NCBI GenBank assembly: GCA_964609175.1 | Contig: CAZSRR010000027.1 | Location: 21,276 to 85,275, forward strand | Source: an uncultured Bradyrhizobium sp. | Lineage (GTDB): Bacteria; Pseudomonadota; Alphaproteobacteria; Rhizobiales; Xanthobacteraceae | DNA: 64,000 nucleotides | Reading direction: 5' to 3' | In this document: one piece after another, positions 7,242 through 36,000 of the stretch | How the letters are laid out: every line of letters begins with the position of its first letter | Position numbering within the stretch: the first letter of the stretch is position 1 | Made by a program: the position numbers and the translations under genes | The notes under the pieces: generated by a model | Databases searched by the model: none | The model's input: only the letters and a program-made list of their open reading frames with translations | Told to the model about the DNA's origin: nothing

Positions 7242-7246
7242 TGGCG

Positions 7247-8346: not shown

Positions 8347-8348
8347 AA

Positions 8349-18691: not shown

Positions 18692-18975
18692 GACTTCGCT
18701 GCGCCGGCTCGTCTGTCCGTTCAACGCGCTTCCCCTCCCGTGACCGTCTTTTTATGGAATTGCGGTCGCGATGCGCGCCAAGCCTAGTCGATTGCGCGGC
18801 GAACGGGAAGCTATCCGAACGTCGGCGCGCGAATATGGCGCACGGCGTGTTTTTCTGGAGCCGCGCCATTCGTTCGCATACGCATCATGCAGCGATGTCT
18901 CTGTGGCTTGTAGCGGGTTCGTAGTACACGCCGCGGTGGGCGCAACGTCCCCTTTTGCGCAGCGAGCCCGACCAG

Positions 18976-20364
18976 ATGCCTCCAGAGCCGACTGCACAGC
19001 CATCGACCCCGGCGCCGATCGATGGCCTGCCCCCCGAACGCCGGCGCTGGGCGGTCGCGGCGATCTTCACCGCGCTGGCGATGGCTTCGCTGGATACGGC
19101 GATCGCCAACATTGCATTGCCCGCGATCGCCACCGACCTGAAGGTCAGCCCGGCCGACGCGGTCTGGGTCGTCAACATCTACCAGATCGCCCTGGTCGCG
19201 ACGCTGCTGCCGCTCGGCGCGCTCGGCGATATCGTCGGCCATCAGCGCATCTACTTCGGAGGGCTGCTGATCTTCACGCTGGCCTCGCTCGGCTGCGCGC
19301 TGGCGTGGTCGCTGCCCAGTCTGACGGCGGCCCGTGCGCTGCAGGGCCTCGGCGCCAGCGGCCTGATGAGCGTGAACGCGGCGCTGGTACGCTACGTCTA
19401 CCCGACCCACATGCTGGGCCGCGGTTTCGGTCACAACGCGCTGGTGGTCGGCACCGCCTTCACCTTCGGACCGACGATCGCGTCCGCGATCCTCGCATTC
19501 GGACCCTGGCCGTGGCTGTTCGCGGTCAATATCCCGTTCGGCATCATCGCGCTCTGGATCGGGGTGAAGACCCTGCCGAATACGCCGCGCGCCAAGCATG
19601 CGTTCGATTTCACCAGCGCGGCGCTGACCACGAGCTGCCTCGGGCTCTTCATCGTCGGCATCGGCGGGGCGGCGCACCAGGTCTCGCCTGCGCTGGTCGG
19701 CCTGATGCTGGCCGCCGCCTTGCTGCTCGGCTGGATCATGACACGCAGAGATGCGGAGCATCCCGCGCCGATGCTGCCGATCGATCTGTTCCGGCGGCCG
19801 ATGTTCGCGCTGTCGGCGGCGACCTCGGTCTGTTCGTTCGTGGTACAGGGTCTGGCCTTCGTCTCGCTGCCGTTCTACTTCGTGGACGTGCTGCACCGCT
19901 CGCAGGTGGAAACCGGCGTCTTGATGACGCCATGGCCGCTGGTGGTGGCGATCATGGCGCCGATCGGCGGGCGGCTGTCCGACCGCTATCCGGTCGGCAT
20001 CCTTGGCGGCCTCGGCCTGGTGCTGCTCGGCATCGGCATGGCGTTGCTGGCGATGCTGCCGGCCGATCCCGCCACCGCCGACATCGTCTGGCGCATGGTG
20101 GTTTGCGGGATCGGTTTCGGCTTCTTCCAGACGCCGAATTTGCGGGCGCTGATGGCAAGCGCGCCGCCGCACCGCAGTGGCAGCGCCAGCGGCATCGTCG
20201 CGACCGCCCGCCTGACCGGGCAAACGCTCGGCGCAGCACTGGCAGCGCTGTGCTTCGCCCTCGGCGGCCATGATGGCGCGACCGCGGCGCTGATGCTCGG
20301 GGCGGGGTTTGCAGCAATCGGAAGCCTGATGAGCTTCCTGCGCCTTGCCGTAGGTTCCACATGA
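18976..20364 (+). CDS. MFS transporter, DHA2 (EmrB/QacA-like, 14 TM)
   Basis: LDTAIANIALP, GALGDIVG, ARALQGLGA, GPTIASAIL, WLFAVNIPFG, GGRLSDRY. Confidence 0.9.
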   Translation: MPPEPTAQPSTPAPIDGLPPERRRWAVAAIFTALAMASLDTAIANIALPAIATDLKVSPADAVWVVNIYQIALVATLLPLGALGDIVGHQRIYFGGLLIFTLASLGCALAWSLPSLTAARALQGLGASGLMSVNAALVRYVYPTHMLGRGFGHNALVVGTAFTFGPTIASAILAFGPWPWLFAVNIPFGIIALWIGVKTLPNTPRAKHAFDFTSAALTTSCLGLFIVGIGGAAHQVSPALVGLMLAAALLLGWIMTRRDAEHPAPMLPIDLFRRPMFALSAATSVCSFVVQGLAFVSLPFYFVDVLHRSQVETGVLMTPWPLVVAIMAPIGGRLSDRYPVGILGGLGLVLLGIGMALLAMLPADPATADIVWRMVVCGIGFGFFQTPNLRALMASAPPHRSGSASGIVATARLTGQTLGAALAALCFALGGHDGATAALMLGAGFAAIGSLMSFLRLAVGST

Positions 20365-20386
20365 CAGCCATGCGAACGCATGCATC

Positions 20387-20713
20387 CGGCGCGGCGGTGA
20401 AGACCGGCAAGGTCAAGCTCGACATTCCGCCGCTGGTCGAGAACGGCAACACCGTGCCGATGACGGTCAGCGTCAACCATCCGATGGCCCCGGAGGATCA
20501 TGTCCGCAGCATTCACGTCTCAACGAAAAGAACCCGCAAGCCAACATCGTCAATTTCCACCTGGGGCCGCATAGCGGCCGCGCCCAGGTCTCGACCCGCA
20601 TTCGGCTCGCCGACAGCCAGAAGATCGTCGCGATCGCAAAACTGTCGGACGGGTCGTTCTGGTCGGCCTGCGTCGATGTCGTGGTGACACTCGCCGCCTG
20701 CACCGAGATGTGA
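20387..20713 (+). pseudogene. soxY: 5'-truncated, frameshifted soxY-like gene (AACxE-arm paralogue)
   Basis: GKVKLDIPPLVENGNTVPMTV...IHV, then a 1-nt deletion near 20520; the restored frame reads (F)NEKNPQANIVNFHLGPHSGRAQVSTRIRLADSQKIVAIAKLSDGSFWSACVDVVVTLAACTEM*. No Tat signal or N-terminus. Confidence 0.85.
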
Positions 20714-20717
20714 TCTG

Positions 20718-20830
20718 ATGGCCTCGGCACCGATCAACGTTCCGGCATAAGCCAAGCGCGGCGACATTCGTCGAGATCAAGACGCTGATGTCGCATATCA
20801 TGGAAACCGGCTATCGCCATACGGCGTCGC
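20718..20830 (+). pseudogene. soxZ: soxZ-like fragment with nonsense codon, frameshift and 3' truncation
   Basis: MASAPINVPA-TAA(20748-20750)-AKRGDI, a +1 frameshift, then VEIKTLMSHIMETGYRHTAS (SoxZ HxMETG motif); similarity ends abruptly. Confidence 0.8.
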
Positions 20831-21005
20831 GTTTTTCCGAGCGCGGCCACTCGGTTGAGGGAACGGTGCTCGGACGTGTCGCAAAGCAGATTCCAGAAAC
20901 ACCGTGAATTTGCGCGAGCGCCAAGTATTCGCGGTGAAGTCAAAAGGCCACTAAGTGACTCTCGTGACTCGCATTTTAGAGATGGAAACGGAACCGGACA
21001 CTCGT

Positions 21006-21082
21006 GGGCTTGTCCCGGCCATCCACGTCCTTCTCACCCGGGCATCAAGAACGTGGATGCCCCGCACAAGACCGCGCATGAC
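21006..21082. repeat. Degenerate REP element (GGGCTTGTCCCGGCCATCCACGT...ACGTGGATG...CATGAC family)
   Basis: Same family as 40285-40366 and 53547-53633. Confidence 0.75.
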
Positions 21083-21097
21083 GGGAGTGTGGGCGGA

Positions 21098-21871
21098 CTA
21101 CCGCTCCGCGAACGCCTTCTCGACCACGAACTGCGCGGGCTCGCCGTGGTTGCCTTCGGCAAAGCCGCGGCCGTTCAGCATCGAACGCGTATCCGTCACC
21201 AGCGCGGGGCTGCCGCAGATCATGACGCGGTCGTGGGCGGGATCGAGCGAGGCCAGTCCAATATCGGCGAACAGTTTTCCGGAATTGATCAGGTCGGTGA
21301 TGCGGCCGCGGTTGCGGAACGGGTCGCGCGTGACCGTCGGGTAATAGACGAGCTGATTGCGGACATAGTCGCCGATGAGTTCGTCGTTCGGCAGTTTTTC
21401 GGTGATCATCTCGCCATAGGCGAGTTCCTTGACGCGGCGGCAGCCGTGCAGCAGCACCACCTTCTCGAACCGCTCATAGGTTTCGGGATCCTTGATCACC
21501 GACAGGAACGGGGCCAGGCCGGTGCCGGTGCCGATCAGATAGAGGTTGCGGCCGTCCTCCAGGTTGTCGATGACCAGGGTGCCGGTCGCCTTGCGGCTGA
21601 CGATGATCTCGTCGCCCTGCTGGAGGTGCTGGAGGCGCGAGGTCAGTGGCCCGTCCGGCACCTTGATCGAGAAGAATTCGAGCCGGTCCTCGTAATTGGC
21701 GCTGGCGACCGAATAGGCACGGAGCAGCGGCTTCTCGCCGACCTTCAGCCCGATCATGGTGAACTCGCCGTTGCGGAAGCGGAACGAGGGATCGCGCGTG
21801 GTGGTGAAGCTGAACAGCGTATCGGTCCAGTGGTGGACGCTCAGCACGCTCTCCTGGTTGAAATTGCTCAT
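21098..21871 (-). CDS. fpr: Ferredoxin--NADP+ reductase, bacterial subclass I
   Basis: VLSVHHWTDTLFSFTTTRD, LLRAYS, GTGTGLAPF, YYPTVTRD, MICGSP, C-terminal VVEKAFAER. Confidence 0.95.
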   Translation of the reverse strand: MSNFNQESVLSVHHWTDTLFSFTTTRDPSFRFRNGEFTMIGLKVGEKPLLRAYSVASANYEDRLEFFSIKVPDGPLTSRLQHLQQGDEIIVSRKATGTLVIDNLEDGRNLYLIGTGTGLAPFLSVIKDPETYERFEKVVLLHGCRRVKELAYGEMITEKLPNDELIGDYVRNQLVYYPTVTRDPFRNRGRITDLINSGKLFADIGLASLDPAHDRVMICGSPALVTDTRSMLNGRGFAEGNHGEPAQFVVEKAFAER

Positions 21872-21898
21872 CGCACCGTTCCCTGACCTGCGAGCCGA

Positions 21899-21941
21899 TT
21901 GACCGGCCGCATCATTGGTATACGATCATTCGTGTACAAAT
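21899..21941. promoter_or_regulatory. Divergent fpr/enamidase promoter with tandem operator-like sites ATTGGTATACGATC (21914-21927) and ATTCGTGTACAAAT (21928-21941)
   Basis: TTGACC-N16-TACGAT on the + strand; each site is an 11/14 match to one of the palindromes at 32375 and 32526. Confidence 0.6.
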
Positions 21942-22015
21942 GAATAATCCGGCTTGATCCGATCGTCAAGCCGGGCACAATGTCCGGCGAAGGCATTGAG
22001 GCAAAAGGAAAAACC

Positions 22016-23215
22016 ATGGCCCACGACGCACCCCAGGCGACCGGTCCGAGCAAGCTGGTGATCCGAAATATCGGGCTGATGCTGTCGGGGGCGCTGGAAA
22101 AGCCGATTCTCGACGGCGACACGATCGTGGCCGAGAACGGCAAGATATCGGCCATTGGCCGATACAAGGATCTCGACACCGAGGGCGCCACCACCGTCGT
22201 CAATGCCAACGGCACCACGGTGGCCCCGGGCCTGATCGACAGCCACGTCCATCCCGTCGCCGGCGACTGGACGCCGCGGCAGAACCAGATCAACTGGATC
22301 GACAGCTATCTGCATGGCGGCGTCACCACCATGATCTCGGCCGGCGAAGTCCACATGCCCGGCCGCCCCCGCGACGTGATCGGCGTCAAGGCGATGGCGA
22401 TCTTCGCGCAGCGCGCGTTCTGGACGCTGCGTCCGGGCGGCGTGAAGGTGCACGCCGGCGCGCCGGTGATTGAATGCGAAATGGTCGAGGACGACTTCAA
22501 GGAAATGGCTGCAGCCGGCGTCAAGCTGCTCGGCGAAGTCGGCCTCGGCGGCGTCAAGGACGGGCCGACGGCGCGAAAGATGGTGGGTTGGGCGCGCAAA
22601 TACGGAATCCAGAGCACGATCCACACCGGCGGTCCCTCGATCCCGGGCTCCGGCCTGATCGACAAGGACGTGGTGCTGGAAGCCGACACCGACGTGGTCG
22701 GCCATATCAATGGTGGCCACACCGCCCTGCCCGACGACCAGATCCGCTGCATCTGCGAGGGGTGCAAGCGCGGGCTGGAGCTGGTTCACAACGGCAATGA
22801 GCGCTCGGCGCTGTTCACGCTGCGCACCGCGCGCGAGATGGGCGATCTCCATCGCGTCATCCTCGGCACCGACGCGCCCGCCGGCTCCGGCGTGCAGCCG
22901 CTCGGCATTTTGCGGATGGTCTCGATGCTGTCCTCGCTCGGCGAACTGCCTGCCGAACTCGCCTTTTGCCTCGCGACCGGCAACACCGCGCGGATGCGCC
23001 AGCTCGACTGCGGCATCATCGAGGTCGGCCGCTCCGCGGATTTCGTCCTGATGGACAAGGCGCAGCACTCGCCGGGCAGGAATATCCTCGAAAGCGTGCA
23101 GCTCGGCGACCTGCCCGGAATCGGCATGACCATCATCGACGGCATCGTCCGCACCCAGCGCAGCCGCAACACCCCGCCCGCGGGTCAGGTACCTGTGATC
23201 GTTAGCGGGCATTGA
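22016..23215 (+). CDS. ena: Enamidase (amidohydrolase acting on 1,4,5,6-tetrahydro-6-oxonicotinate)
   Basis: PGLIDSHVH, GDWTPRQ, LHGGVTTMISAG, PGRPRD, RPGGVKVH, GEVGLG, HTGGPSIPGSG, HINGG, LGTDAPAGSG, SRNTPPA match my recollection of Eubacterium barkeri enamidase; nicotinate gene context. Confidence 0.85.
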   Translation: MAHDAPQATGPSKLVIRNIGLMLSGALEKPILDGDTIVAENGKISAIGRYKDLDTEGATTVVNANGTTVAPGLIDSHVHPVAGDWTPRQNQINWIDSYLHGGVTTMISAGEVHMPGRPRDVIGVKAMAIFAQRAFWTLRPGGVKVHAGAPVIECEMVEDDFKEMAAAGVKLLGEVGLGGVKDGPTARKMVGWARKYGIQSTIHTGGPSIPGSGLIDKDVVLEADTDVVGHINGGHTALPDDQIRCICEGCKRGLELVHNGNERSALFTLRTAREMGDLHRVILGTDAPAGSGVQPLGILRMVSMLSSLGELPAELAFCLATGNTARMRQLDCGIIEVGRSADFVLMDKAQHSPGRNILESVQLGDLPGIGMTIIDGIVRTQRSRNTPPAGQVPVIVSGH

Positions 23216-23351
23216 CAGCGGCACGGTTCACGAATGCGTGCAACGGGGCGTGAAAGTCACGCCTGACCTCGAAAGCGGTGAACAAATCCGCGGCCTTCGC
23301 GACCAATGCGAGCAGGCTTGATGGACACCTGCGCTCACCACCGAGGCAGAG

Positions 23352-24032
23352 TTGGAAAATTCGCTGCAAGTCGCCGGCGGGATCGTCGGCGCTGTCATAG
23401 GCTTTGTCGCAACGCTGCTGCTGCTGGAATTGTTCGGGTTCGGCAATCTCGCCGATCCGATCATGCCCGGCATGCTGGCACTGGTGTTTGCGCCGTGCGG
23501 CGCCGTCGCCGGCCAGTTGCTGGGCACCGCGGCCACACGATGGTTGCGTGGCGGCGAAGCCGGCCTGTCCCGCAGCGGCATGACGGCGTCTGCCGTTCTG
23601 ATCGGGCTTTGTGCAGCGGCGGCGGCCTCCTATTACGTCTATGCCGTCACGACGGCGACACCCTGGCTCAATCCAAACGCACCCAACCCGCTGCTGGTCT
23701 TTGAGATTCGGCTTCCTGCCGGGTCCAGCTTGCCGGACTCGGCCAGCGACATCACGGCCAAACTGCAAACCGATCTGAACACCATGTCCGGCGAGATGCA
23801 GCCCGACCAGTTCCGGCGCGATGACGACAGGCCGGTCATCGCCGGCTATGTCGAACTCCCGTTCCGGACTGCGTCCCGGCAGTTGCAGATGAAGATCAAG
23901 GGCCAGCCCGACCGGCTCTACCTCATCGGTCTGCCGGCGACAGCGCCGCATATGGCCGAGTTCGGGCCGTGGCAGGCCAATGCCGACGGCAGCGAAATCC
24001 GCTATCGCGCCCGCTGGCCGGGGCGAAACTGA
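23352..24032 (+). CDS. Hypothetical membrane-anchored protein (N-terminal TM helices plus soluble domain)
   Basis: 226-aa ORF with TTG start filling the gap between ena and marR; three hydrophobic N-terminal segments. Confidence 0.6.
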   Translation: MENSLQVAGGIVGAVIGFVATLLLLELFGFGNLADPIMPGMLALVFAPCGAVAGQLLGTAATRWLRGGEAGLSRSGMTASAVLIGLCAAAAASYYVYAVTTATPWLNPNAPNPLLVFEIRLPAGSSLPDSASDITAKLQTDLNTMSGEMQPDQFRRDDDRPVIAGYVELPFRTASRQLQMKIKGQPDRLYLIGLPATAPHMAEFGPWQANADGSEIRYRARWPGRN

Positions 24033-24084
24033 CGCCCGGCGAGCGGGCTCCCGGTTTCTGCTCCGCTTGGGGTTGTTGTCGGAG

Positions 24085-24540
24085 TCACCGCAGCTTCTCG
24101 AGCAGCGCCATCAAGGTCTCGCGCTCCTTTGCATCGAGCGGCGCCAGCGTCTCCTTCGAAATCGCGATCGCGTTGGGCGCGGCCTTTTCCGCCAGCTGCT
24201 GGCCGGCGCGCGTCAGGCTGACCAGCAGGCGGCGGCCGTCCTCGGGATCCGGGCTGGTCTCGGTGAGGCCGCGCGCCGTCAGGCGATCGATCACGCCCTT
24301 GATCGTGGCGACGTCCATCGACGTCAGCCGTCCGAGCAGGTTTTGCGAGCACGGTCCGGTTTCGTTCAGCTTGGCGAGCGCCGCCCATTGGGTCGGCGTC
24401 AGGTTGATACCGATTCCCTGGGCGAAGATGGTGGCATGGCGCTGCGAGACCTGGCGCAGGATGAAGCCGATCTGCTCGTCGAGGATGTAGGATGGCCGCG
24501 CCGGCTTGACGGCTCGTTTCGGCGAAACACTCCTGGCCAT
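24085..24540 (-). CDS. MarR family regulator (NicR/BpsR-like)
   Basis: YILDEQIGFILRQ..QRHA.IF, LTPTQWAAL, MDVATIKGVIDRL, DPEDGRR; last gene of the hnr operon. Confidence 0.88.
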   Translation of the reverse strand: MARSVSPKRAVKPARPSYILDEQIGFILRQVSQRHATIFAQGIGINLTPTQWAALAKLNETGPCSQNLLGRLTSMDVATIKGVIDRLTARGLTETSPDPEDGRRLLVSLTRAGQQLAEKAAPNAIAISKETLAPLDAKERETLMALLEKLR

Positions 24541-24562: not shown

Positions 24563-25267
24563 TCACAGCGACAGATGCGCGTCGCGGATGTCGGGCCGCG
24601 CGTCGAGTTCGGCCATCGTGCCGCCGAAGCAGATCCTGCCGCGCTCGATGATGTAGGCGCGATCGGAAATCAGCCGCGCGAAATGCAGATTCTGCTCTGA
24701 AACTACGATGCTGACGCCCTCGCGTTTCATCGCGAGGATGGCGTCGACCATCTGTTCGACGATCTTGGGCGACAGTCCCTCCGAGGGTTCGTCGAGCAGC
24801 ACCAGCGACGGGTTGCCCATCAGCGTGCGGGCGATGGTCAGCATCTGCTGTTCGCCGCCGCTCATCCGTCCGCCCGGGCGGTTGCGCATTTCGCCGAGAT
24901 TGGGAAACAGCGCGAACAGCTTTTCGCGGGTCCATTGCGGCGCGTTCGGCCGTTTCGGCTGGCGGCCCACTTCGAGATTTTCGTCCACCGTCAGATCCGT
25001 GAAGATACGCCGTTCCTCCGGCACGTAGCCGAGCCCGCCACGCACGATCGCGTGCGTCGGCTCGCGCGAGACGTCCTTGCCTTCAAAGACGATTTTCCCG
25101 GAGCGGTTCTCCACGAGGCCGACGATGGAGCGGAACGTGGTCGACTTGCCGGCGCCGTTGCGGCCGAGCAGCGCCACCACCTCGCCCTCGCCGACCTCGA
25201 GCGCGATATCGAACAGGATATGCGCCGGGCCGTAGAAACTGTTGAGATCGGAAACCTGCAGCTTCAT
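24563..25267 (-). CDS. Branched-chain-type ABC ATP-binding protein (LivF-like)
   Basis: GRNGAGKST, YVPEERRIF, MSGGEQQML, LDEPSEGL, SEQN. Confidence 0.93.
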   Translation of the reverse strand: MKLQVSDLNSFYGPAHILFDIALEVGEGEVVALLGRNGAGKSTTFRSIVGLVENRSGKIVFEGKDVSREPTHAIVRGGLGYVPEERRIFTDLTVDENLEVGRQPKRPNAPQWTREKLFALFPNLGEMRNRPGGRMSGGEQQMLTIARTLMGNPSLVLLDEPSEGLSPKIVEQMVDAILAMKREGVSIVVSEQNLHFARLISDRAYIIERGRICFGGTMAELDARPDIRDAHLSL

Positions 25268-26055
25268 GCGCCGGCTCCCTCGCGGTGGCGCGCATCGTAG
25301 ACCAGGCCTTCGCCGAGATAGATCGCGCGCACCTCGGGATTGCCGCGGACCTGCTCGGGCGAGCCCTCCGCGATCAGGCTGCCGCGGTTCAGCACCAGGA
25401 TGCGGTCGGCATGCTCGAACACCACGTCCATGTCGTGCTCGGTGAACAGCACGCCGATCGACTGCTCGCGGGCGATGCGCGCGGTGAGCCGCATCAGTTC
25501 GATCCGTTCGCGCGGCGCCATGCCTGCGGTCGGCTCGTCCATCAAGAGCAGTTTCGGCTGGTTGGCGAGCGCGATCGCGAGTTCCAGCCGCTTGAGGTCG
25601 CCATAGGCCAGTTCACCGCAGGGCCGCTCCGCATAGGCGCCCATGCCGACGAGATTGAGCAGCCGGCCCGCTTCCTCGCGCGCGTAGTTCGCGGTCGAGC
25701 CCCAGACATTGAACAATTGCCTTCCATAGGACACCAGCGCGACCTGCACGTTCTCGCGCACCGTCATGGTCGGGAACGTCGCCGTGATCTGGAAGGTGCG
25801 GCCGACGCCGAGCCGCCAGACCGCACGCGGCTTGCAGCCGACGGTCTCCTCGCCGAGCAGCGTGATCCGGCCGCTGTCCGGCGTGTTCTGGCCGTTGAGC
25901 ATGTCGAAACAGGTGCTCTTGCCGGCACCGTTGGGGCCGATCAGCGCCAGAATTTCGCCGGCGCGCAGTTCGAACGAGACGCTGCGCACGGCGTGCACGC
26001 CGCCATACGACTTGCTCAAATTCTCGACCGACAGCAATGCGGGCGTCGTGCTCAT
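25264..26055 (-). CDS. Branched-chain-type ABC ATP-binding protein (LivG-like)
   Basis: GPNGAGKST, GRTFQ, LAYGDLKRLE, DEPTAG, TEHDMD; start MSTTP overlaps the permease stop. Confidence 0.92.
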   Translation of the reverse strand: MSTTPALLSVENLSKSYGGVHAVRSVSFELRAGEILALIGPNGAGKSTCFDMLNGQNTPDSGRITLLGEETVGCKPRAVWRLGVGRTFQITATFPTMTVRENVQVALVSYGRQLFNVWGSTANYAREEAGRLLNLVGMGAYAERPCGELAYGDLKRLELAIALANQPKLLLMDEPTAGMAPRERIELMRLTARIAREQSIGVLFTEHDMDVVFEHADRILVLNRGSLIAEGSPEQVRGNPEVRAIYLGEGLVYDARHREGAGA

Positions 26056-27938
26056 TCGGCGGCCTCGACGCGTGAGGTGGCGTGCGAAGATTTGTTGTCG
26101 GTCGGCCGCCAGCGATTGGAAATCGTCTCCAGCGTGCCGACGATCCCCTTCGGAAAGGCCACCACCATCAGCACGATGAAGCCGCCAAGCACCAGTTTCG
26201 ACAGATCGGTCTGGCTGACCAGCCAGATGTTCGCCGCCTTGAACACGATGGCGCCGATCACAGCACCGGACACCGTCTCGACGCCGCCGAGCAGCACCAT
26301 GACCAGCGCATCGACCGACAGGGAGATGCCGAGGCTGTCCGGAAAAACGCTCCCCTTCAAATAGGCGAACAGCGCACCGCCGATGCCGGCGACCGTGCCC
26401 GAGATCACGAAGGCGGTCCATTGCACGCGCTTGCAGTCAATGCCGATCGCCTCGCTGCGGAGCGGCGAGTCTCGCGTGGCGCGGAGGGCAAAACCGAACG
26501 GCGAGAACACGATCACCCGCAGCACGGTGACGACGACCGCGGCGATCGCCAGCGACAGCCAGTAGAAGCTCGCAGGCCCCGCCGCCCATTTGTCCGGCCA
26601 GACACCCAGAATGCCGTTGTCGCCGCCGGTCACGCCCACCCACTGGAACGCGATCGACCAGACGATCTGCGCGAAAGCCAATGTCAGCATCGCGAAGTAG
26701 ACGCCGGAAAGCTGCACGGCGAAGAAGCCGAACACCGCGGCGCCCAGCAGACCCAGCACAGGACCAAGCAGCAGCGAGACGATCATCGGCAGCCCCGCCG
26801 CCTTGGCGAGGAATGCGACGCCATAGGCGCCGAGCCCGAAATAGGCGGCGTGGCCGAACGAGGCCAGCCCGCCGACCGACATCAGGAAGTGGAGACTGGC
26901 GGCGAAGATCACGAAGATCGAGATTTCCGAACCGACGGTGAGCGCGTAATTGCCGGCGAACAGCGGCAGCACCGCCGCTATGGCCAGCGCGCCGAGCGAC
27001 ATCAGCCGCTCGCCCGCGGTCAAAGGCCGCCACGGATTGACGGTCAAACCCGGCGTGCGCCGTGCGGCGGCTTCCGGCTTGCCGAACAAGCCCCACGGCC
27101 GAACGATCAGCACCGCCGCCATTACCAGGAACACCAGGATGATGGAGATCTTCGGGAAGATGAGAATACCGAAGGCGTTCAGTTCGGAGACCAGCACGGC
27201 GGCGACGAAGGCGCCGATGATGCTGCCGAGCCCGCCGATCACCACCACCACGAACACTTCGACGATGATGCGAAGGTCCAGCGCGTGATGCACGGCATCG
27301 CGCGGAATCTGCAGCGCGCCGCCGAGCGCGGCGAGAAAGACACCGAGCGCAAACACGCTGGTGAACAGCCATTTCTGATTGACGCCGAGCGCCGCGACCA
27401 TGTCGCGGTCTTGCGTCGCGGCGCGGACGAGAATGCCCCAGCGCGTGCGCTGGAACAGCAGCCACAGCCCGCCGAGCACGATGGGGGTGATCCCGATCAG
27501 GAACAGGTCATAGCTCGGGATATTCTGACCGAAGAATTCGACCGCCCCCTTGAAGCCCGGCGCGCGGCGGCCGAGCAGATCGTCGGGTCCCCAGATCAGC
27601 ACCACGATGTCCTGCACCATCAAGGTCAGGCCGAAGGTCGCCAGCAGCTGGAACAGTTCGGGCGCATGGTAGATCCGCCGCAGCAGCACCATCTCGACCA
27701 GCACGCCGACGGCGGCAACGACCAGCGCCGCCACCACGATGCCGCCCCAGAAGCCAAGCGCGCCGGAAAAACGCTCGGTCAGCGTGAACGCGACATAGGC
27801 GCCAAGCATGTAGAACGCGCCGTGGGCAAAATTCACGATCCGCGTCACGCCGAAGATGATCGACAGCCCCGACGCGACCAGGAACAGCGACGCCGCGCTG
27901 GCGAGACCGGTCAGGAACTGAACGAAGTAGAAGGCCAT
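26052..27938 (-). CDS. Fused LivH-LivM ABC permease
   Basis: Two permease domains: IVNFAHG...GGLGS and SFGHAAYFGLGAY...TGGDNG...LLGG. Confidence 0.9.
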   Translation of the reverse strand: MAFYFVQFLTGLASAASLFLVASGLSIIFGVTRIVNFAHGAFYMLGAYVAFTLTERFSGALGFWGGIVVAALVVAAVGVLVEMVLLRRIYHAPELFQLLATFGLTLMVQDIVVLIWGPDDLLGRRAPGFKGAVEFFGQNIPSYDLFLIGITPIVLGGLWLLFQRTRWGILVRAATQDRDMVAALGVNQKWLFTSVFALGVFLAALGGALQIPRDAVHHALDLRIIVEVFVVVVIGGLGSIIGAFVAAVLVSELNAFGILIFPKISIILVFLVMAAVLIVRPWGLFGKPEAAARRTPGLTVNPWRPLTAGERLMSLGALAIAAVLPLFAGNYALTVGSEISIFVIFAASLHFLMSVGGLASFGHAAYFGLGAYGVAFLAKAAGLPMIVSLLLGPVLGLLGAAVFGFFAVQLSGVYFAMLTLAFAQIVWSIAFQWVGVTGGDNGILGVWPDKWAAGPASFYWLSLAIAAVVVTVLRVIVFSPFGFALRATRDSPLRSEAIGIDCKRVQWTAFVISGTVAGIGGALFAYLKGSVFPDSLGISLSVDALVMVLLGGVETVSGAVIGAIVFKAANIWLVSQTDLSKLVLGGFIVLMVVAFPKGIVGTLETISNRWRPTDNKSSHATSRVEAAE

Positions 27939-27960
27939 GGGCGGTCCGGGTTACGTGGTC

Positions 27961-28130
27961 CCTTACCTCGCCCCACTTGCGGGGAGAGATCGGAATTCAA
28001 GCGCGCCTGAATTCCGGGTGAGGGGTACAGATCTGTCGATAGCGCAGGACTCGTGGTGAGAGCCCCGCACCCGACGCTCCAAGAGCGAGTTTCGCTCGTC
28101 TCGACCCCGCGAAGAGCGGGGGGAGAGAGA
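27961..28130. repeat. REP/RIME-like GC-rich stem-loop element inside the operon
   Basis: CCTCGCCCCACTTGCGGGGAGAG and ACCCCGCGAAGAGCGGGG hairpins between the SBP stop and the permease start. Confidence 0.65.
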
Positions 28131-28141
28131 GGAGCAAGAAC

Positions 28142-29347
28142 TCAATTCTTCGGGCGCATCTTCTCCACTTCGGCGTCGCTCGGCAGGTAGTCGCCGCCCT
28201 TGCGATAGACCGAATTGACCATCACGCCCTTGCCGTCCTTCAGCGCGGTCTTGCCGACATAGGCGCCTAACGTCGACTGGTGGTCGATCTTGCGGAAGGT
28301 GATCTCGCCGAACGGCGACGGCATCGACAGGCCCTCGGCCGCCGCGATCAGCTTCTCCGGATCGGTGGAATTGGCCTTGGTGAGGATCGCCGCCGCGGCC
28401 TTGATGGTCTGGTAGCCGACGATCGAGCCGAGGCGCGGATAGTCGTTGAACTTGGCCTGGTAGGCTTTGAGGAATTTGTCGTGGTCCGGCGTCTTGATGT
28501 CGTACCAGGGATAGCCCGTGACGATCCAGCCCTCCGGCGTCTCTTCTTTCAACGGATCGAGATATTCGGGCTCACCGGTAAGGAAGGACACGACCGAGCG
28601 GTTCTTGAACAGGCCGCGCGTGTTGCCTTCGCGCACGAGCTTGACGAGATCGGCGCCGAAGGTGACGTTGAGGATTGCTTCCGGGTTGGCGGCGGCCACC
28701 GCCTGCACCACCGGGCCGGCGTCGATCTTGCCCTGCGGCGGCCACTGCTCGTCGACCCACTGGATGTCCGGGCGCTTTTCCGACATCAGCTTCTTGAACA
28801 CGGCAACGGCCGACTGGCCGTATTCATAGTTCGGCGCGATGGTCGCCCAGCGTTTTGCCGGCAGCTTTGCCGCCTCCTCCACCAGCATCGCCGCCTGCAT
28901 GTAGTTGGAGGGGCGCAGGCGGAAGGTGTAGCGATTGCCCTTCGACCAGGTGATGGCGTCGGTCAGAGGCTCCGCCGCGAGGAAGAACACCTTCTTCTGG
29001 TTGGCGAAGTCGGAGACGGCCAAGCCGATATTGGAGAGGAACGTGCCGGCCAGCATCGCGACGTTCTCGCTCGACACCAGTTCGTTGGCGGCGGTCGTCG
29101 CGTCCGCCGGCTTGCCGCCGTCGTCCTTGGAGATGACGACGAGCTTCTTGCCGTTGATGCCGCCGGCGGCGTTGATCTCTTCGACCGCGAGTTGCCAGCC
29201 CTTGCGATAGGGCTCGGTGAAGGCCGGCAACAGCGAATAGCTGTTGATCTCGCCGACCTTGATCTCGCCGCTCTGCGCCATGGCGTTGCCTGCCATGCCG
29301 GCGACCGCAATCGCCAGCCCCGCGCCCAGTAAGTGTCTCCGCTGCAT
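28142..29347 (-). CDS. Branched-chain-type ABC substrate-binding protein (probable nicotinate-related uptake)
   Basis: RRHLL signal peptide, EINAAGGINGKKL, DDGGKP, APNYEYG; GGAGG RBS before ATG 29347. Confidence 0.88.
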   Translation of the reverse strand: MQRRHLLGAGLAIAVAGMAGNAMAQSGEIKVGEINSYSLLPAFTEPYRKGWQLAVEEINAAGGINGKKLVVISKDDGGKPADATTAANELVSSENVAMLAGTFLSNIGLAVSDFANQKKVFFLAAEPLTDAITWSKGNRYTFRLRPSNYMQAAMLVEEAAKLPAKRWATIAPNYEYGQSAVAVFKKLMSEKRPDIQWVDEQWPPQGKIDAGPVVQAVAAANPEAILNVTFGADLVKLVREGNTRGLFKNRSVVSFLTGEPEYLDPLKEETPEGWIVTGYPWYDIKTPDHDKFLKAYQAKFNDYPRLGSIVGYQTIKAAAAILTKANSTDPEKLIAAAEGLSMPSPFGEITFRKIDHQSTLGAYVGKTALKDGKGVMVNSVYRKGGDYLPSDAEVEKMRPKN

Positions 29348-29371
29348 CCCTGCCTCCAATGTACCTGTGAA

Positions 29372-29956
29372 CTACCGCAAGCCGTCTTCGCCTTTGACTT
29401 CCGTAACCGTCAGCCCGCCGACGCGCGGCAACGGCCTGCCGCTGTCGGTCACCGCGACCGCAACCATGATCTCGTTGGCGCACGGCGCGTCGTTGATCTG
29501 CACTTCCATGCCGTCGAAATGGCTGCGCACGAAGGCCGCATCCTTGTGGCCGAGCGGAATGTCGAGCGTCGTGCCCGGGCCGCTGCGCTTCTTGGACGAC
29601 GGGATCAGCGCCGCGCCCTTGCCCAAAACTTTCCGTACCGGCGCACCCATCTTGGGATGCAGGATCGCCGCCGCATGTTCCAGCTCGCCGTTCTCGCCGA
29701 CGGCTGCGGCCTTGCCGTAGCTGTGCGCCTTGGTACCGTCGATGCCGAGCGCGGCCACCGCCCTCCTGGAAAGGAGATCGCCGAGTTCCTCGCCGATCTC
29801 GATCAGGGGCGAAAGATCCTCGACATAGCGGCCGGCAAAGGGATTTACGATCACCGCGATCGCCGCGGCCCGCCGCGTCGGCGGCGAAACCTTCTGGCCC
29901 ATTTCGAGATGGGTTTCCTCGACCACCGTGACGATCTTGCGAATGATCGCGCTCAT
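29372..29956 (-). CDS. 'Amino acid synthesis' family protein (AA_synth/DUF1185)
   Basis: IRKIVTVVEET, AVIVNPFAGRYVEDL, YGKAAAVGENGELEH, IPLGHK, DAPCANEI, GRPLPR. Confidence 0.82.
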   Translation of the reverse strand: MSAIIRKIVTVVEETHLEMGQKVSPPTRRAAAIAVIVNPFAGRYVEDLSPLIEIGEELGDLLSRRAVAALGIDGTKAHSYGKAAAVGENGELEHAAAILHPKMGAPVRKVLGKGAALIPSSKKRSGPGTTLDIPLGHKDAAFVRSHFDGMEVQINDAPCANEIMVAVAVTDSGRPLPRVGGLTVTEVKGEDGLR

Positions 29957-29975: not shown

Positions 29976-30872
29976 TCAAACACGTGCCACACTCTCATCC
30001 GTCGCCGGCAACGCACTGGCTCTGACCCCTGTTGAGCCCACCAAAGCCGTCTCGCCTAGTAGACGCAAGGCCGCACCTTCGATCAACCCCGCCGCAAGCA
30101 ATTGCTGTGCCCGCTCGACCCCGGCGGCCAGAGCCTCGTCAACCTCGTCTTCGCCGAGCCGGCGAACGGCGCGCGTGACGAGGCGCGCGCCGAGGTCGCT
30201 GTCGGCCTGCAATTCGTTTGCCGGCCGACGGACAATGCCGGGATGACCGGGCAGATCGACGGCATTGGCGATCACGGTGGCGGCGGCATCGGCTTGCGAG
30301 GCCGTTTTCGCCAGCACCGTCACGGCGTCGGCGATCCCGAGCGAAAAGCTGCGGCCATGCCGCCCGCTGGTCGCGATGCCCCGTGCCTGATCGCCAGCCC
30401 CGACGCGGATGGTCTGCATCACGCCGCGGTGGTCCGGCCGGTCCAGCAGCCCGACGGCAAACTGTTCCGCACCGGTCAGATGCAACGCGATGTCGCCGCC
30501 ATTGTTGACATAGGCGCGATCGAGCCGCGCCGCGGCAAGCATCGCGCCAAGAATTTCTTCGGCCACGCTGCCGGCGACTGCTGCCATCGGCGTGATGAAC
30601 TCGCTGGCCGAAAAGGGCGCCACCGCCGTATGCATGCGCCGCGCGACGACGCCGCGGAGCGCGCTGTCGGCCGGATCGGCCGCCTTTCGAAGCTCGGTCA
30701 GTTCTTCGCAGAGTTCATCGAGCAAGCCACCGAAGCGCCGCGCCGCCGCCTCGTAGGCCGCGTGCACCTCGCTTTCGGTTCCACTCGCACCGATGACGAG
30801 ATCAATCGGGCCATCCTGCAAATGCACCCGCTTGCCGTCAGGAAGAAGCGCGATTTGCGGAAGCCGTTTCAT
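29976..30872 (-). CDS. UPF0280 family protein (ApbE/Ftp flavin-transferase superfamily)
   Basis: LQDGPIDL, TPMAAVAG, NNGGDIAL, GIATSG, SFSLGIADAVTV, ADAAAT. Confidence 0.85.
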   Translation of the reverse strand: MKRLPQIALLPDGKRVHLQDGPIDLVIGASGTESEVHAAYEAAARRFGGLLDELCEELTELRKAADPADSALRGVVARRMHTAVAPFSASEFITPMAAVAGSVAEEILGAMLAAARLDRAYVNNGGDIALHLTGAEQFAVGLLDRPDHRGVMQTIRVGAGDQARGIATSGRHGRSFSLGIADAVTVLAKTASQADAAATVIANAVDLPGHPGIVRRPANELQADSDLGARLVTRAVRRLGEDEVDEALAAGVERAQQLLAAGLIEGAALRLLGETALVGSTGVRASALPATDESVARV

Positions 30873-32314
30873 GCGCGCCGTCCGGGCAAATGAGGTAGGG
30901 AGCGAAACTCAGTATTATCGCGGAGCGACGCCAGCGGGCGCACGTGATCCACGTGGCCGCCGAGCGCGGCGTAATCGGAAAGTTTCAGCGTGAACTCGAT
31001 CGGCGCCACCAGCGCCGGCGTCGGCACATAGCCGAACGCGCCCGCCGGCATCTGCGTGACGTCGACCATGAAGGTGATGCCGCCGCCGGGCCAGACATAG
31101 ACCGGCGCACCACCGCTCGTCACCCGCGTCAGCGCCTCCTTGACCGAGCGCGTCAGCCGCACCGGATTGTCGGTGACGCCGGCGCGCAGCGAACCGCCCG
31201 CGCCGCCCATGAACAGCACCGTGCACAGCGCCGGTTCGCAATTCTCCTGGATTCGCTCGACCGACAAACGAAGATCGGCCGGCATCTGCTTCTCGACCGG
31301 CTGCAGCGCTTCGTCCAGTTCGTAATAGGCCGCGTGCTCGCCGGTCGTCGATACCATCAGCATGGTCAGCCCCGGCCGCGCCTCCTTCGGGTTGAATGGT
31401 CCGAGCACCGACAGCGGATCGGAGATATTGGTGCCACCCCAGCCGGTGCCGGGCTCGGCGACCTGAAAATAGCGGCCGGGCGTCGAGCGCCGTCCCTTCA
31501 TCTTGATCCCGGTATCGGGAATATCGAGCAGCTTGCCCGCCTGGTGCTCGCTGAGAACGCCGGTGATGTGGTCGTCCACGACGACGACTTCATCGACCTT
31601 GCCATGCCATTGCTTGGCGAACATTCCGATGGTCGCCGAACCGCACCCGACCCGCATGCGCTCTTCGGCGACCCCGTTCACGATCGGCGGGTAGCCGGCC
31701 TGCACCACGACAGTGGCGCCGCCATCGATCGTCAGCTCCACCGGCTTGCAGTTGGAGAGGTCCATCAGCGCATCGCAGGTGACGCGTCCCTCTTTCTTGG
31801 AGCCGCCGGTGAGATGATGCACGCCGCCGAGCGACAGCATCTGCGAGCCGTATTCGCTGGTCGTCACGTGACCGATCATCTCGCCTTCCGCGCGCACGGC
31901 CGCGGTTTCGGGGCCGAGATAGCGGTCGGTGTCGATCTTCACCTTGACGCCGCAATAGCTGAAAATGCCCTCGGTCACGACCGTGACCATGTCGACGCCG
32001 TCGACTTCCGAGGACACGATGAAAGGCGCAGGCTTGTAGTCGGGATAGGTGGTGCCGGCGCCGATCGCGGTCACGAAGACATCGGACTCGTGGACGATCT
32101 TGCCGTCCCAGTCGCCGCCGGCCTGGAACGGCACCAGCCGCCCGCCATGCGACACCGTCCGCTCCAGCACGATGTGCGGATCGACGCGCACCAGTTCGCC
32201 GTCGTGATTGGCGTAACGATCGCACGCGCCCGCCGCGCCCGGCTTGATGTAGCACATCACCGGACAGGCATCGCAGCGGATCTTGTCGCCACCGGCGACG
32301 GTCGCATCGGTCAT
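30869..32314 (-). CDS. hnr: 6-hydroxynicotinate reductase (Fe-S flavoprotein)
   Basis: CDACPVMC..GACDRY, IGAGTTYP, KPAPFIVS, VTVVTEG, TSEYGS, MRVGCGSATIG, SEHQAG, GGSLRAG, VWPGGGITF, VPTPALVAPIEFT match my recollection of E. barkeri Hnr. Confidence 0.85.
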   Translation of the reverse strand: MTDATVAGGDKIRCDACPVMCYIKPGAAGACDRYANHDGELVRVDPHIVLERTVSHGGRLVPFQAGGDWDGKIVHESDVFVTAIGAGTTYPDYKPAPFIVSSEVDGVDMVTVVTEGIFSYCGVKVKIDTDRYLGPETAAVRAEGEMIGHVTTSEYGSQMLSLGGVHHLTGGSKKEGRVTCDALMDLSNCKPVELTIDGGATVVVQAGYPPIVNGVAEERMRVGCGSATIGMFAKQWHGKVDEVVVVDDHITGVLSEHQAGKLLDIPDTGIKMKGRRSTPGRYFQVAEPGTGWGGTNISDPLSVLGPFNPKEARPGLTMLMVSTTGEHAAYYELDEALQPVEKQMPADLRLSVERIQENCEPALCTVLFMGGAGGSLRAGVTDNPVRLTRSVKEALTRVTSGGAPVYVWPGGGITFMVDVTQMPAGAFGYVPTPALVAPIEFTLKLSDYAALGGHVDHVRPLASLRDNTEFRSLPHLPGRRA

Positions 32315-32374
32315 GAACAAGCCTGCGATCGAGAAAGGCGGGCGACCGGGCCACGTTTCCGCAGCCGGTCAATT

Positions 32375-32388
32375 GTTCGTATACGAAC
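32375..32388. promoter_or_regulatory. Perfect palindrome GTTCGTATACGAAC, candidate MarR operator over the hnr-operon start site
   Basis: Minus-strand TTGACA (32418-32413)-N17-CACCAT places the transcription start inside the palindrome. Confidence 0.7.
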
Positions 32389-32519: not shown

Positions 32520-32547
32520 TTGCACGTTTGTACACAAACGGTATCCT
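32520..32547 (+). promoter_or_regulatory. nicA promoter TTGCAC-N16-TATCCT with operator GTTTGTACACAAAC (32526-32539) in the spacer
   Basis: Near-perfect 14-bp palindrome related to 32375-32388, between the -35 and -10 hexamers. Confidence 0.65.
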
Positions 32548-32597
32548 TCCCAGCCATCGCATGCAGGATTTTGCAGCGCAGCGAGGGCTTGAGGGGC

Positions 32598-33068
32598 ATG
32601 ATGCGGCTGACCGTCAACGGCAAGACCAGCGAGATCGATGCCGCACCTGACACCGCACTGCTTTACGTCCTGCGCAACGACCTCGCGTTGAACGGACCGA
32701 AATACGGCTGCGGGCTCGGCGAATGCGGTGCCTGCGCGGTGCTGATCGACGGCGTCGCGGCGCGTTCCTGCGTCATTCCGATCGAGGGCTGCGAAGGGCG
32801 CGACATCGTGACGCTCGAAGGTCTCGGCACGCGCCAGCGTCCCGATCCGGTGCAGCAGGCCTTCATCCATGAACAGGCGGCGCAATGCGGCTATTGCCTC
32901 AACGGCATGATCATCGCGACCAAGGCGCTGTTGTTGCGCTCGCCTGCCCCGTCCGACGGCGAGGTGATGGAAGCGCTGCGGCATCAGCTATGCCGCTGCG
33001 GCGCGCATGTTGAAATCATGCGCGCCGCGTTTCGCGCCGCCGGACGCGCGGTGGAGGCGCCCGTGTAA
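32598..33068 (+). CDS. nicA: Nicotinate dehydrogenase small subunit, 2x[2Fe-2S] (CoxS-like)
   Basis: KYGCGLGECGAC, QCGYC, LCRCG; start ATG 32598. Confidence 0.85.
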   Translation: MMRLTVNGKTSEIDAAPDTALLYVLRNDLALNGPKYGCGLGECGACAVLIDGVAARSCVIPIEGCEGRDIVTLEGLGTRQRPDPVQQAFIHEQAAQCGYCLNGMIIATKALLLRSPAPSDGEVMEALRHQLCRCGAHVEIMRAAFRAAGRAVEAPV

Positions 33069-36000
33069 TGACAGTGCCGGGCAACAAGGATCGCGAACGA
33101 ATGTCGGGCACCCTCGCCGTCGTCCGCCCCGCCTCTTCCGTCGAAACCGTCAAGTTCGAAACGTTCATCAGGATTACCGCCGACGGATCGGTCACCGCCT
33201 ATAACGGCCATGTCGATCTCGGCACCGGCATCCGCACCGCGCTCGGACAGATCGTCGCCGAGGAACTCGACGTCTCCTTTGCGCGCGTCGTCGTCGTGCT
33301 CGGCGATACCGCGCTCGTCCCCAACCAGGGCGCGACGATCGCGAGCGAGACCATCCAGATCACCGCCGTGCCGCTGCGCAAGGCGGCAGCGCAGGCCCGG
33401 CAGTTCTTGCTCATGCGCGCGGCGGAGCGGCTGGGACTTGCAGCGGGCGATCTCGTCATCGAGGACGGCCTGGTCCGCGGGCGCGACAATCGCAGCCTCA
33501 GCTATGGCGAGCTGATCGCCGGCGAAACCATCCAGCTCGAACTGGCCGACGACGTGCCTGTGAAGTCGGCCGACCACTACACCATCGTCGGGCAATCCAT
33601 CCCCCGCGTCGACCTGCCCGCAAAGGCCACCGGCGAACTGGTCTACGTCCACGACATGCGCGTGCCTGATATGCTGCATGGCCGCGTCGTGCGTCCGCCC
33701 TATGCCGGCGTCGATGTCGGCGACTTCATCGGCAACAGCCTGATCGCGGTTGACGAGGCATCGGTCAGCCATATCCCGGGGCTGGTCGCCGTCGTGAGGA
33801 TCGGCGACTTCGTCGGCGTCGTCGCCGAGCGCGAAGAGAACGCGATCAAGGCGGCGGCGCAGCTCAAGGTGAGCTGGAAGCCGGTGCCGACGCTGCCCGA
33901 CCTGAAGGACATCGAGACCGCGCTGCGCGCCAACCCGTCCGTGCCGCGAACGCTGATCGACAAGGGCGATGTCGATGCGGCGATTGCCGGCGCCGCGAAG
34001 CCGATGCCGCGCACCTACGTCTGGCCCTACCAGATGCACGCCTCGATCGGGCCGTCCTGCGCGGTGGCCGACTATTCGGAGGATGTGACGAGGGTCTGGT
34101 CCGGTACGCAGAACCCGCATCATCTGCGCACCGAACTGGCGCAGCTGATCCAGCGCCGCGAAACCGAGATCGAAGTGATCCGGATGGAAGCCGCCGGCTG
34201 CTACGGACGGAACTGCGCCGACGACGTTTCCGCCGACGCCGTGCTGCTGTCGCGCGCCGTCGGCCGGCCGGTGCGCGTGCAGTTGACCCGCGAGCAGGAG
34301 CACGCCTGGGAGCCGAAGGGCACCGCTCAGCTGATGGACGTCAACGGCGGATTGAACGCCGACGGCAGCGTGGCCGGATACGATTTCGCCACGCGCTATC
34401 CCTCGAACGGCGCGCCGACGCTGGCGCTGCTGCTGACCGGCGCGATCCCGCATGCGCCTGCGGTCTTCGAGATGGGCGACCGCACCGCGATCCCGCCCTA
34501 TGACTACGAAAACCTGCGCGTGGTGGCCAACGACATGCCGCCGATCGTGCGCGCCGCCTGGCTGCGCGGCGTCTCGGCGCTGCCCAATACATTCGCGCAC
34601 GAATCCTGGATCGACGAATGCGCGGCCGAGGCCGGCGTCGACCCGATCGAATACCGACTGCGCTACCTCAAGGATTCGCGCGCGGTCGATCTCGTCAAGG
34701 CGGTGGCCGAACGCGCCGGGTGGCAGCCGCGGCCGGTGCGGCAGGAAAAACAGGCCGAAGGCGACATCGTGCGCGGGCGCGGCTTCGCCTACGCGCTCTA
34801 CGTCCACAGCAAGTTTCCCGGCTATGGCGCGGCGTGGTCGGCGTGGATCGCCGACGTCGCGGTCAACAAGGCGACCGGCGACGTCAGCGTGACGCGCGTC
34901 GTGGCCGGACAGGATTCCGGCCTGATGATCAATCCGGACGGCGTGCGCCACCAGATCCACGGCAACGTCATCCAGTCCACCAGCCGGGCGCTGATGGAGG
35001 AGGTTTCGTTCGACCGCAGCTCGGTGACGGCGCGCGAATGGGGCGCCTACCCGATCATCAAATTCCCGGAGGTGCCCAAGATCGACGTGCTGATGCTGCC
35101 GCGGCAGGACCAGCCGCCGCTCGGCGTCGGCGAGTCCGCGTCCGTCCCAAGTGCCGCGGCGATCGCGAACGCGATTTATGATGCGACCGGCGTGCGTTTT
35201 CGCGAATTGCCGTTCACGCCGGAACGCATTCTGCGCGGGCTGCATGGCGAGCCGCAGCCGGTGCCGCAAGCCCTGTCCGCGCCGCCGCCGGCCGTCACGC
35301 CGCGCGCGTGGCAAAATCCCCTGGCCGGACGCGGCATGCTCGCGACCGCCGCGGCCCTCTGCGCCGCAGCCATCGGCATTGGCGCGGCCGTGTTGCCCTG
35401 GCGCGCAATCCCGCCGATCGCGCGGCCGGATGCCACGGTGTTCTCGGCCGCGACCATCGCACGCGGCCAGCAGCTTGCCGCGCTCGGCGATTGCGCCGTC
35501 TGCCACACGTCGGAGAATGGCGTTCTCAACACCGGCGGCCGCGCGCTGCGAACGCCGTTCGGCATCATCCACTCCACCAACATCACCCCCGACGTCGAAA
35601 CCGGCATCGGCGCGTGGTCCTATCCCGCCTTCGAGCGCGCAATGCGCGAGGGCATCCATCGCGACGGTCGGCACCTCTATCCGGCATTCCCGTATACGCA
35701 TTTCGCCAGGACAACCGATGCCGACCTGCAGGCGCTCTACGCCTACCTGATGGCGCAGCCGGCGGTGCGCGCCGAGACGCCGCCGAACGCACTGGCGTTT
35801 CCGTTCGACCAACGTCCATTGATGGCAGGCTGGAACGCGCTGTTCCACAAGGCCGAGACGTTCAAGCCCGATCCAGCCAGGTCCGAGATATGGAATCGCG
35901 GCGCGTATCTGGTCGAAGGCCTCGGCCATTGCAGCGCCTGCCATTCGCCGCGCAATGCGCTCGGCGCGGAGGTGACCACGGCTCACCTTGCCGGTGGCTT

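Follow-up and report, generated by a model that had tools for sequence, protein, structure and literature searches.

A nicotinate cluster-linked ferredoxin-NADP+ reductase as a probable electron supplier of 6-hydroxynicotinate reductase in Bradyrhizobium

The stretch of DNA analysed here (the window) covers 64 kb of a Bradyrhizobium genome with 65% G+C and contains a cluster of genes for the reductive degradation of nicotinate, in which fpr, a gene for a bacterial ferredoxin-NADP+ reductase, stands next to the enamidase gene ena. An original prediction, made from the window alone, had proposed that this fpr was recruited into the nicotinate regulon; at the level of sequence comparison, such a membership is strongly supported by a shared operator, a conserved promoter, gene linkage and the position of the protein in a separate clade. 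Moreover, we consider it on balance probable that the window fpr is a dedicated paralog that supplies NADPH electrons, via a ferredoxin, to the 6-hydroxynicotinate reductase Hnr. The Hnr/enamidase route was elucidated in an anaerobe rich in reduced ferredoxin, and the question is how aerobic soil and nodule bacteria obtain the low-potential supply. 6-Hydroxynicotinate reductase (EC 1.3.7.1) uses ferredoxin, as established for Eubacterium barkeri, and in work of Kitts et al. from 1989 and 1992 the reductive nicotinate route was reportedly demonstrated in the aerobe Azorhizobium caulinodans.

The hnr/ena nicotinate cluster itself has already been described in A. caulinodans ORS571 (AZC_2790-2804), Bradyrhizobium japonicum USDA110 (blr3818-3830) and Rhodopseudomonas palustris HaA2 (Shettigar et al. 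2012, PMC3511419). What is new here with respect to that study is the link of the fpr promoter to the operator, the distinct clade of Fprs and a unit formed by fpr and the ferredoxin gene fdxA; no mention of fpr or of a ferredoxin as part of an hnr/ena cluster was found in the literature searched.

The original prediction placed fpr divergent from ena, with a minus-strand promoter starting within the second of two operator copies. All these elements are indeed found at the coordinates given, and the neighbour is a true enamidase, the ena product matching PDB 2VUN with E 1.3e-107 over residues 24-404 of the longer open reading frame (ORF). The likely start of ena is the in-frame ATG at 22016, which has an AAAGGA ribosome site, and not 21980. 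The genes and sites on which the argument depends are the following.

21098-21871, minus strand: fpr, Azotobacter/Brucella-type bacterial ferredoxin-NADP+ reductase, 257 aa (Pfam domains and PDB matches)
21899-21926, plus strand: predicted ena promoter, TTGACC, 16 nt, TACGAT, the sole sigma-70-like site called in 20700-22200
21915-21926: degenerate first operator copy TTGGTATACGAT, with two mismatches to the consensus, overlapping the ena -10
21929-21940: operator core TTCGTGTACAAA, in an extended palindrome TCATT-N8-AATGA (21926-21943); the second copy of the original prediction
21941-21969, minus strand: predicted fpr promoter, -35 TTGACG (21969-21964), 17 nt, -10 TATTCA (21946-21941)
21949-21974: hairpin with a 9-bp stem, CCGGCTTGA ... 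TCAAGCCGG, in the ena leader and containing the fpr -35
22016-23215, plus strand: ena, enamidase, which hydrolyses 1,4,5,6-tetrahydro-6-oxonicotinate (PDB 2VUN)
24085-24540, minus strand: MarR-family regulator, candidate repressor at the operator (Pfam MarR)
30869-32320, minus strand: hnr, 6-hydroxynicotinate reductase homolog, 483 aa (names of close relatives)
32376-32387: perfect operator TTCGTATACGAA, 56 nt upstream of hnr
32527-32538: operator TTTGTACACAAA in front of nicA

In the predicted fpr promoter, the -10 abuts the operator core and the transcript start, near 21934, falls inside it; a bound repressor would therefore block both fpr and ena. A generic promoter scan did not call this TTGACG/TATTCA pair, because its -10 ends in A, and the promoter was accepted only after a comparative test across 88 divergent fpr-ena spacers, 78 of them from Bradyrhizobium loci and the remainder from other genus-level lineages (strains labelled Bradyrhizobium sp. 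G127, WD16 and 2TAF24, metagenome-assembled genomes of Xanthobacteraceae, and Rhodoplanes). The operator core is present in all but one of these spacers (87/88). In 83 of the 87 operator-bearing spacers, which represent at least six genus-level lineages, GTCAA (the reverse of the -35 TTGAC) starts exactly 24 nt past the core, and the hexamer abutting the core reads as a minus-strand -10, either TATTCA or TATTCG, TATTTG or TAATCA. The 17 bases between the -10 and the -35 vary freely among genera. A -35 and a -10 held in fixed register with the operator while the intervening bases change are the signature of a real promoter kept together with a repressor site. The tandem operator copy is found in Bradyrhizobium only, its flanking CGATC being constant across Bradyrhizobium loci and absent in other genera. 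Likewise, the stem of the hairpin, which the generic scan had called, is kept within Bradyrhizobium, whereas other genera retain no more of it than GTCAA, and the hairpin was thus rejected as a conserved element that could act as a terminator or attenuator.

The exact 12-bp palindrome TTNGTRTACNAA occurs at three sites in the window (21929, 32376 and 32527), all in promoter regions of the nicotinate cluster, with a chance expectation of 0.01 estimated from shuffled sequence. In the 20-kb loci of 20 other genomes, exact copies are also confined to nic promoter regions. Since the same operator is located at the ena, hnr, nicA and fpr promoters, one repressor would release all four. This repressor would most likely be the MarR protein, whose gene accompanies ena and hnr in many genomes, and the presence of nicotinate or 6-hydroxynicotinate would take it off the four promoters.

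As suggested along with the original prediction, we surveyed the adjacency of fpr and ena across genomes. The loci closest to the window come from Bradyrhizobium species (94-97% identical), and fpr adjoins ena in 78 of 80 Bradyrhizobium loci. A sample of 121 genomes of the family Xanthobacteraceae comprised 27 ena-positive and 94 ena-negative genomes; fpr was found within a few hundred bases of ena, in divergent and in co-directional arrangements, in 22 of the 27. At least five gene orders keep fpr and ena together, including the following.

a divergent fpr-ena pair
a single-strand series nicA-nicB-fpr-ena-hnr
nicA-nicB-fdxA-fpr-ena, preceded by hnr on the opposite strand
fpr and then ena, following liv genes

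In all 17 other family clusters with fpr beside ena, the operator immediately precedes fpr or the fdxA-fpr pair. In co-directional arrangements of fpr and ena, it moves along and precedes fpr, or fdxA where this gene is present, by 33-72 nt. Outside the family, the constant core consists of hnr, the genes for the UPF0280 and AA_synth proteins, and ena, often with the MarR gene and a transporter. In a Rhodopseudomonas sp. that has no fpr beside ena (L157:7439-9384), the upstream place is held by genes encoding an isochorismatase-family nicotinamidase and an IclR regulator.

The adjacency might be inherited synteny without function, fpr being a housekeeping or stress gene and the operator serving ena only. 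Such an explanation could draw on the fact that most cases belong to one family, and could stem from one event, as well as on the failure of the generic scan to call the fpr promoter. However, the fpr-ena pair survives the rearranged orders listed above, the operator travels with fpr or fdxA-fpr when these are co-directional with ena, and the -35 and -10 keep their register to the operator despite the changing sequence between them. In addition, the clade of linked Fprs is almost absent where ena is absent, and a separate linkage exists in a betaproteobacterium (see later in the text). We thus consider synteny without function very unlikely.

The Fpr protein contains an FAD_binding_6 domain (PF00970, residues 19-91) followed by a NAD_binding_1 domain (PF00175, residues 112-229), as identified with Pfam. 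Over residues 1-257 it matches full-length the solved reductases of Brucella ovis, Pseudomonas aeruginosa, Azotobacter vinelandii and Rhodobacter capsulatus (6RR3, E 9e-115; 2QDX, E 3e-108; 1A8P, E 7e-108; 2BGI, E 3e-89), and 4B4D also matches, within the E 1e-115 to 1e-104 range of the top structures. At the C-terminus, where the Azotobacter-type subclass typically carries an extension, all linked Fprs end in V-x-E-K-A-F-A-E-R/K. The genome possesses a second, unlinked fpr, 63% identical to the first and located between a glutamate-synthase-like gene and unrelated genes. In a tree built from 60 Fprs by maximum likelihood, two derived copies and the 21 Xanthobacteraceae Fprs encoded next to ena share one clade (ultrafast bootstrap, UFBoot, 84; Shimodaira-Hasegawa-like approximate likelihood ratio test, SH-aLRT, 94), which splits into two halves with supports of 99/96 and 100/99. 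About 35 unlinked Fprs, including the second copy of the window genome, are placed outside this clade. One of the derived copies lies beside leftover liv genes and the other is a recent duplicate. Among the 94 ena-negative genomes, a linked-clade Fpr was found in a single one, where it lies beside leftover liv genes of the cluster; as related genomes are not independent, no test statistic is given. In this phylogeny, the window fpr is therefore a nicotinate cluster-linked paralog on a lineage separate from that of the unlinked copies. A pathway-specific electron feed would explain why two fpr copies are kept in these genomes.

In the route that we propose, Fpr would pass electrons from NADPH to a small ferredoxin. 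The partner would most likely be of the 7Fe FdxA type, whose gene belongs to the cluster in Azorhizobium, Aquabacter and Xanthobacter and is found at another place in the window genome. Five genomes (Aquabacter cavernae, Azorhizobium doebereinerae, A. caulinodans ORS571 and two Xanthobacter) have the order nicA-nicB-fdxA-fpr-ena, and their nicB-fpr interval encodes an Azotobacter-type 7Fe ferredoxin (fdxA) of 109 aa, containing Fer4 and DUF3470 domains. The operator is located 33-61 nt upstream of fdxA in these five clusters. In A. caulinodans ORS571, a TTGACA-N16-TATTTT promoter precedes the operator in front of fdxA, and a gap of only 28 nt between fdxA and fpr indicates that the two genes probably form one transcript. 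The placement of a 7Fe ferredoxin gene immediately before fpr in five clusters lends independent support to the idea of an electron supply. Only one fdxA homolog (69% identical) is present in the window genome, where it lies on a different contig. A small ORF of the window (20361-20687) was considered as a ferredoxin and ruled out, as it has no cysteine motif. Pairs of fdxA and fpr also occur away from nicotinate genes in other family genomes (loci L177, L178, L180 and L192); the pair thus looks like a ready-made portable module that was moved into the nic clusters.

The fdxA-fpr unit also bears on a different role for a co-regulated fpr, namely maintenance: Fpr would hold the iron-sulfur and flavin centres of Hnr, which are sensitive to oxygen, in a reduced or repaired state, or would relieve redox stress that arises from the pathway, and would not deliver stoichiometric electrons. 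Bacterial Fprs are generally known to be tied to oxidative stress and iron-sulfur homeostasis, as with fpr of E. coli and Pseudomonas. Moreover, Hnr has an invariant motif of four cysteines, and the clusters of other families work without a linked fpr. However, five clusters have fdxA directly before fpr and under the nic operator, an arrangement more in keeping with an electron-carrier chain than with repair, and a second fpr is already available for general duties. Taken together, we regard the maintenance role as unlikely.

If Fpr and a ferredoxin feed Hnr, the ferredoxin would reduce this iron-sulfur flavoenzyme, which would convert 6-hydroxynicotinate to tetrahydro-6-oxonicotinate for subsequent hydrolysis by the enamidase. 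Close relatives of the window hnr product are named 6-hydroxynicotinate reductase by NCBI and JGI, and PMC3511419 gives an identity of 42% between a Bradyrhizobiaceae homolog and the Hnr of E. barkeri. In an alignment of 30 sequences, the N-terminal residues Cys16, Cys19, Cys23 and Cys33 are invariant, and these four cysteines could hold the cluster through which electrons enter. No Pfam or NCBIfam model matched Hnr. Its predicted structure (predicted local distance difference test, pLDDT, 76) had no solved relative in the PDB (Foldseek, best E 0.02) and gave no clue to the site of electron entry; to judge from this model, the fold of the Hnr family seems undescribed. A complex prediction of Hnr with Fpr gave a score of 0.00, which argues neither for nor against direct docking of the two proteins.

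Fpr could also serve another enzyme of the regulon, either a step coupled to ring opening or one of the lower pathway, or it could run in reverse and produce NADPH from reduced ferredoxin. In nearly all architectures, fpr is the neighbour of ena, or of the hydantoinase-type genes hyuAB described below, and not of hnr; furthermore, no activity is known for the AA_synth and UPF0280 proteins, and the lower pathway of these bacteria is unassigned. Nevertheless, enamidase and the hydantoinase-type enzymes catalyse hydrolysis, for which no redox chemistry is required, whereas Hnr is the sole low-potential electron consumer of the known route, and in Xylophilus fpr is divergent from hnr itself. We therefore find it highly improbable that Fpr acts on a step other than the reduction of 6-hydroxynicotinate or runs in reverse.

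A phylum-level sample of Hnr proteins consisted mostly of near relatives and added one case from outside the Alphaproteobacteria. In Xylophilus sp. Leaf220 (Betaproteobacteria; L200:9264-14214), hnr is divergent from fpr-tetR-ena; the Fpr is not a member of the linked Xanthobacteraceae clade and falls in an unresolved region of the tree. A TetR regulator (TetR_C_29) encoded between fpr and ena replaces MarR, and no exact TTNGTRTACNAA site was found in this cluster, so the regulator was apparently swapped. In Mesorhizobium, five complete genomes with hnr clusters had no match to ena at E 1e-20. In this genus, a hydantoinase/oxoprolinase gene pair, hyuAB, is divergent from the single fpr (51% identical), and a nic-type palindrome, ATCRTTTGTATACTAATAAA, is present between hyuAB and fpr in 7 of 7 genomes, the pair being 4 kb or 100 kb from hnr. 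The hyuAB-fpr loci are L195:13033-17856 (Mesorhizobium sp. NFR06), L196 and L204-L208. An ATP-dependent lactam hydrolase may replace the enamidase in these bacteria.

We tentatively propose, as a possibility that falls somewhat short of probable, that Fpr, a 7Fe ferredoxin and Hnr constitute a three-component NADPH-driven 6-hydroxynicotinate reductase for aerobes and that the module was recruited more than once, with a dedicated paralog in Xanthobacteraceae, a separate Fpr in Xylophilus and the sole Fpr, together with a hydantoinase-type ring opener, in Mesorhizobium.

A number of observations weigh against a dedicated electron supply by Fpr. As the original prediction had noted, the window itself contains no ferredoxin gene, neither in a tblastn search with a 7Fe ferredoxin nor in a six-frame scan for cysteine motifs. 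None of 26 ena orthologs from outside the family (69-82% identical) has fpr within 1.5 kb, and 20 ena-positive genomes from other families of the Alphaproteobacteria contain neither fpr nor fdxA at a distance of up to 10 kb from ena. Within the family, the adjacent fpr is missing in at least four ena-positive genomes; in a fifth genome where no fpr was seen, ena is at a contig edge and the case cannot be judged. Two of the genomes that lack the adjacent gene, G408 and G421, have no Fpr of this class at E 1e-60. Given that such ena-positive family genomes exist, Hnr evidently works without a linked reductase. All the Xanthobacteraceae cases may stem from one ancestral event and would then not be independent. 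The single linked clade is only moderately supported (84/94), and no residues conserved at 85% or more per group were found that separate linked from unlinked Fprs. The palindrome that fpr shares with hyuAB in Mesorhizobium, which has no further fpr copy, might act on hyuAB only. Finally, no expression data for the fpr locus, including the USDA110 locus tags, were found in the literature searched.

The absence of the fpr module from the 20 genomes of other families and from at least four of the same family indicates that it is an accessory and not a universal part of the pathway. With clusters of many lineages lacking a linked reductase, this accessory would probably secure or tune the electron supply to Hnr and would not be an obligatory subunit. 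Dedicated supply of electrons to Hnr by the linked Fpr is nonetheless the reading that we favour.

The remaining genes identified around fpr, ena and hnr in the window are as follows.

18955-20364, plus strand: major facilitator superfamily (MFS) efflux-type transporter
23352-24032, plus strand: protein without known family
24563-29359, minus strand: Liv/Urt-type ATP-binding cassette (ABC) transporter, with two ATPases, a fused permease and a binding protein (NCBIfam)
29372-29956, minus strand: AA_synth (PF06684) protein, conserved hnr partner (Pfam/NCBIfam)
29976-30872, minus strand: UPF0280 (NF003322) protein, conserved hnr partner (NCBIfam)
32520-33068, plus strand: nicA, 2Fe-2S subunit of nicotinate hydroxylase (Pfam Fer2_2/Fer2; NCBIfam)
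33068-36610, plus strand: nicB, molybdopterin subunit of nicotinate hydroxylase with a cytochrome c tail (Pfam MoCoBD_1/2 and Cytochrom_C; NCBIfam)
36648-37985, plus strand: pncB

Because the operator at 32527-32538 follows the first TTG of the nicA ORF (32520), the true start of nicA has to be downstream of that codon. Directly past the fpr stop codon, an imperfect 39-nt inverted repeat (20994-21085, 74% complementary) may represent a terminator or a repeat element. In the window, 730 bp separate the MFS gene from fpr. In most Bradyrhizobium relatives (L005, L007, L009 and many others, at about 2600-9000), about 5 kb lie between these two genes, an insert that encodes a second molybdenum hydroxylase (nicA-like, 45%; nicB-like, 27%) and that the window does not have. 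A weak operator-like palindrome, TTCGCATACGCA, with 2 mismatches, precedes the MFS transporter gene by about 70 nt (18873-18884). The interval between ena and marR (23216-24084 in the window) is a variable insertion point that ranges from 0.1 to 8 kb in relatives; in the window it encodes a hydrophobic protein of 226 aa with no family match, which is 50-83% identical where present.

A pathway-specific feed from NADPH through Fpr, and possibly FdxA, to Hnr is a concrete hypothesis that involves three proteins and can be tested directly. It would provide a better annotation for hundreds of genes now named 'ferredoxin--NADP reductase', and the three proteins could make a compact NADPH-driven module for the enzymatic reduction of pyridones.

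The closest functional comparison is the Hnr system of E. barkeri, where Alhapel et al. in 2006 are said to have described 6-hydroxynicotinate reductase with ferredoxin. Both systems have an Hnr-family protein and a true enamidase, and both need a low-potential one-electron carrier. However, E. barkeri is a strict anaerobe in which ferredoxin is reduced by fermentation, whereas the cluster of the window has an NADPH-dependent reductase and a cytochrome c-linked NicAB, with a 7Fe ferredoxin in its relatives. The text of the study on proteobacterial hnr/ena clusters (PMC3511419) names neither a ferredoxin nor fpr. As for regulation, the window resembles the NicR system of Pseudomonas putida, a MarR-family regulator, in having a MarR gene in the nicotinate cluster and a palindromic candidate binding site at several promoters; in Xylophilus, in contrast to the NicR arrangement, a TetR gene is found instead and the motif is missing.

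With respect to electron transfer, the window Fpr belongs to the same enzyme class as the A. vinelandii FPR that works with the 7Fe ferredoxin I and as the other solved Fprs (1A8P, 6RR3, 2QDX and 2BGI; E 1e-89 to 1e-115), and the fdxA of relatives encodes the same type of ferredoxin partner (Fer4 + DUF3470). However, those enzymes are general or stress-linked, whereas the window copy is a second paralog behind a catabolic operator. The concept of dedicated electron-transfer partners in a catabolic operon is already familiar: the putidaredoxin reductase and putidaredoxin of P450cam and the reductases of Rieske dioxygenases follow the same logic of a co-regulated chain from NAD(P)H through a flavoprotein to a ferredoxin. 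Those chains feed oxygenases by means of other reductase families, whereas here a plant-type Fpr would feed an oxygen-independent reductive saturation of the ring.

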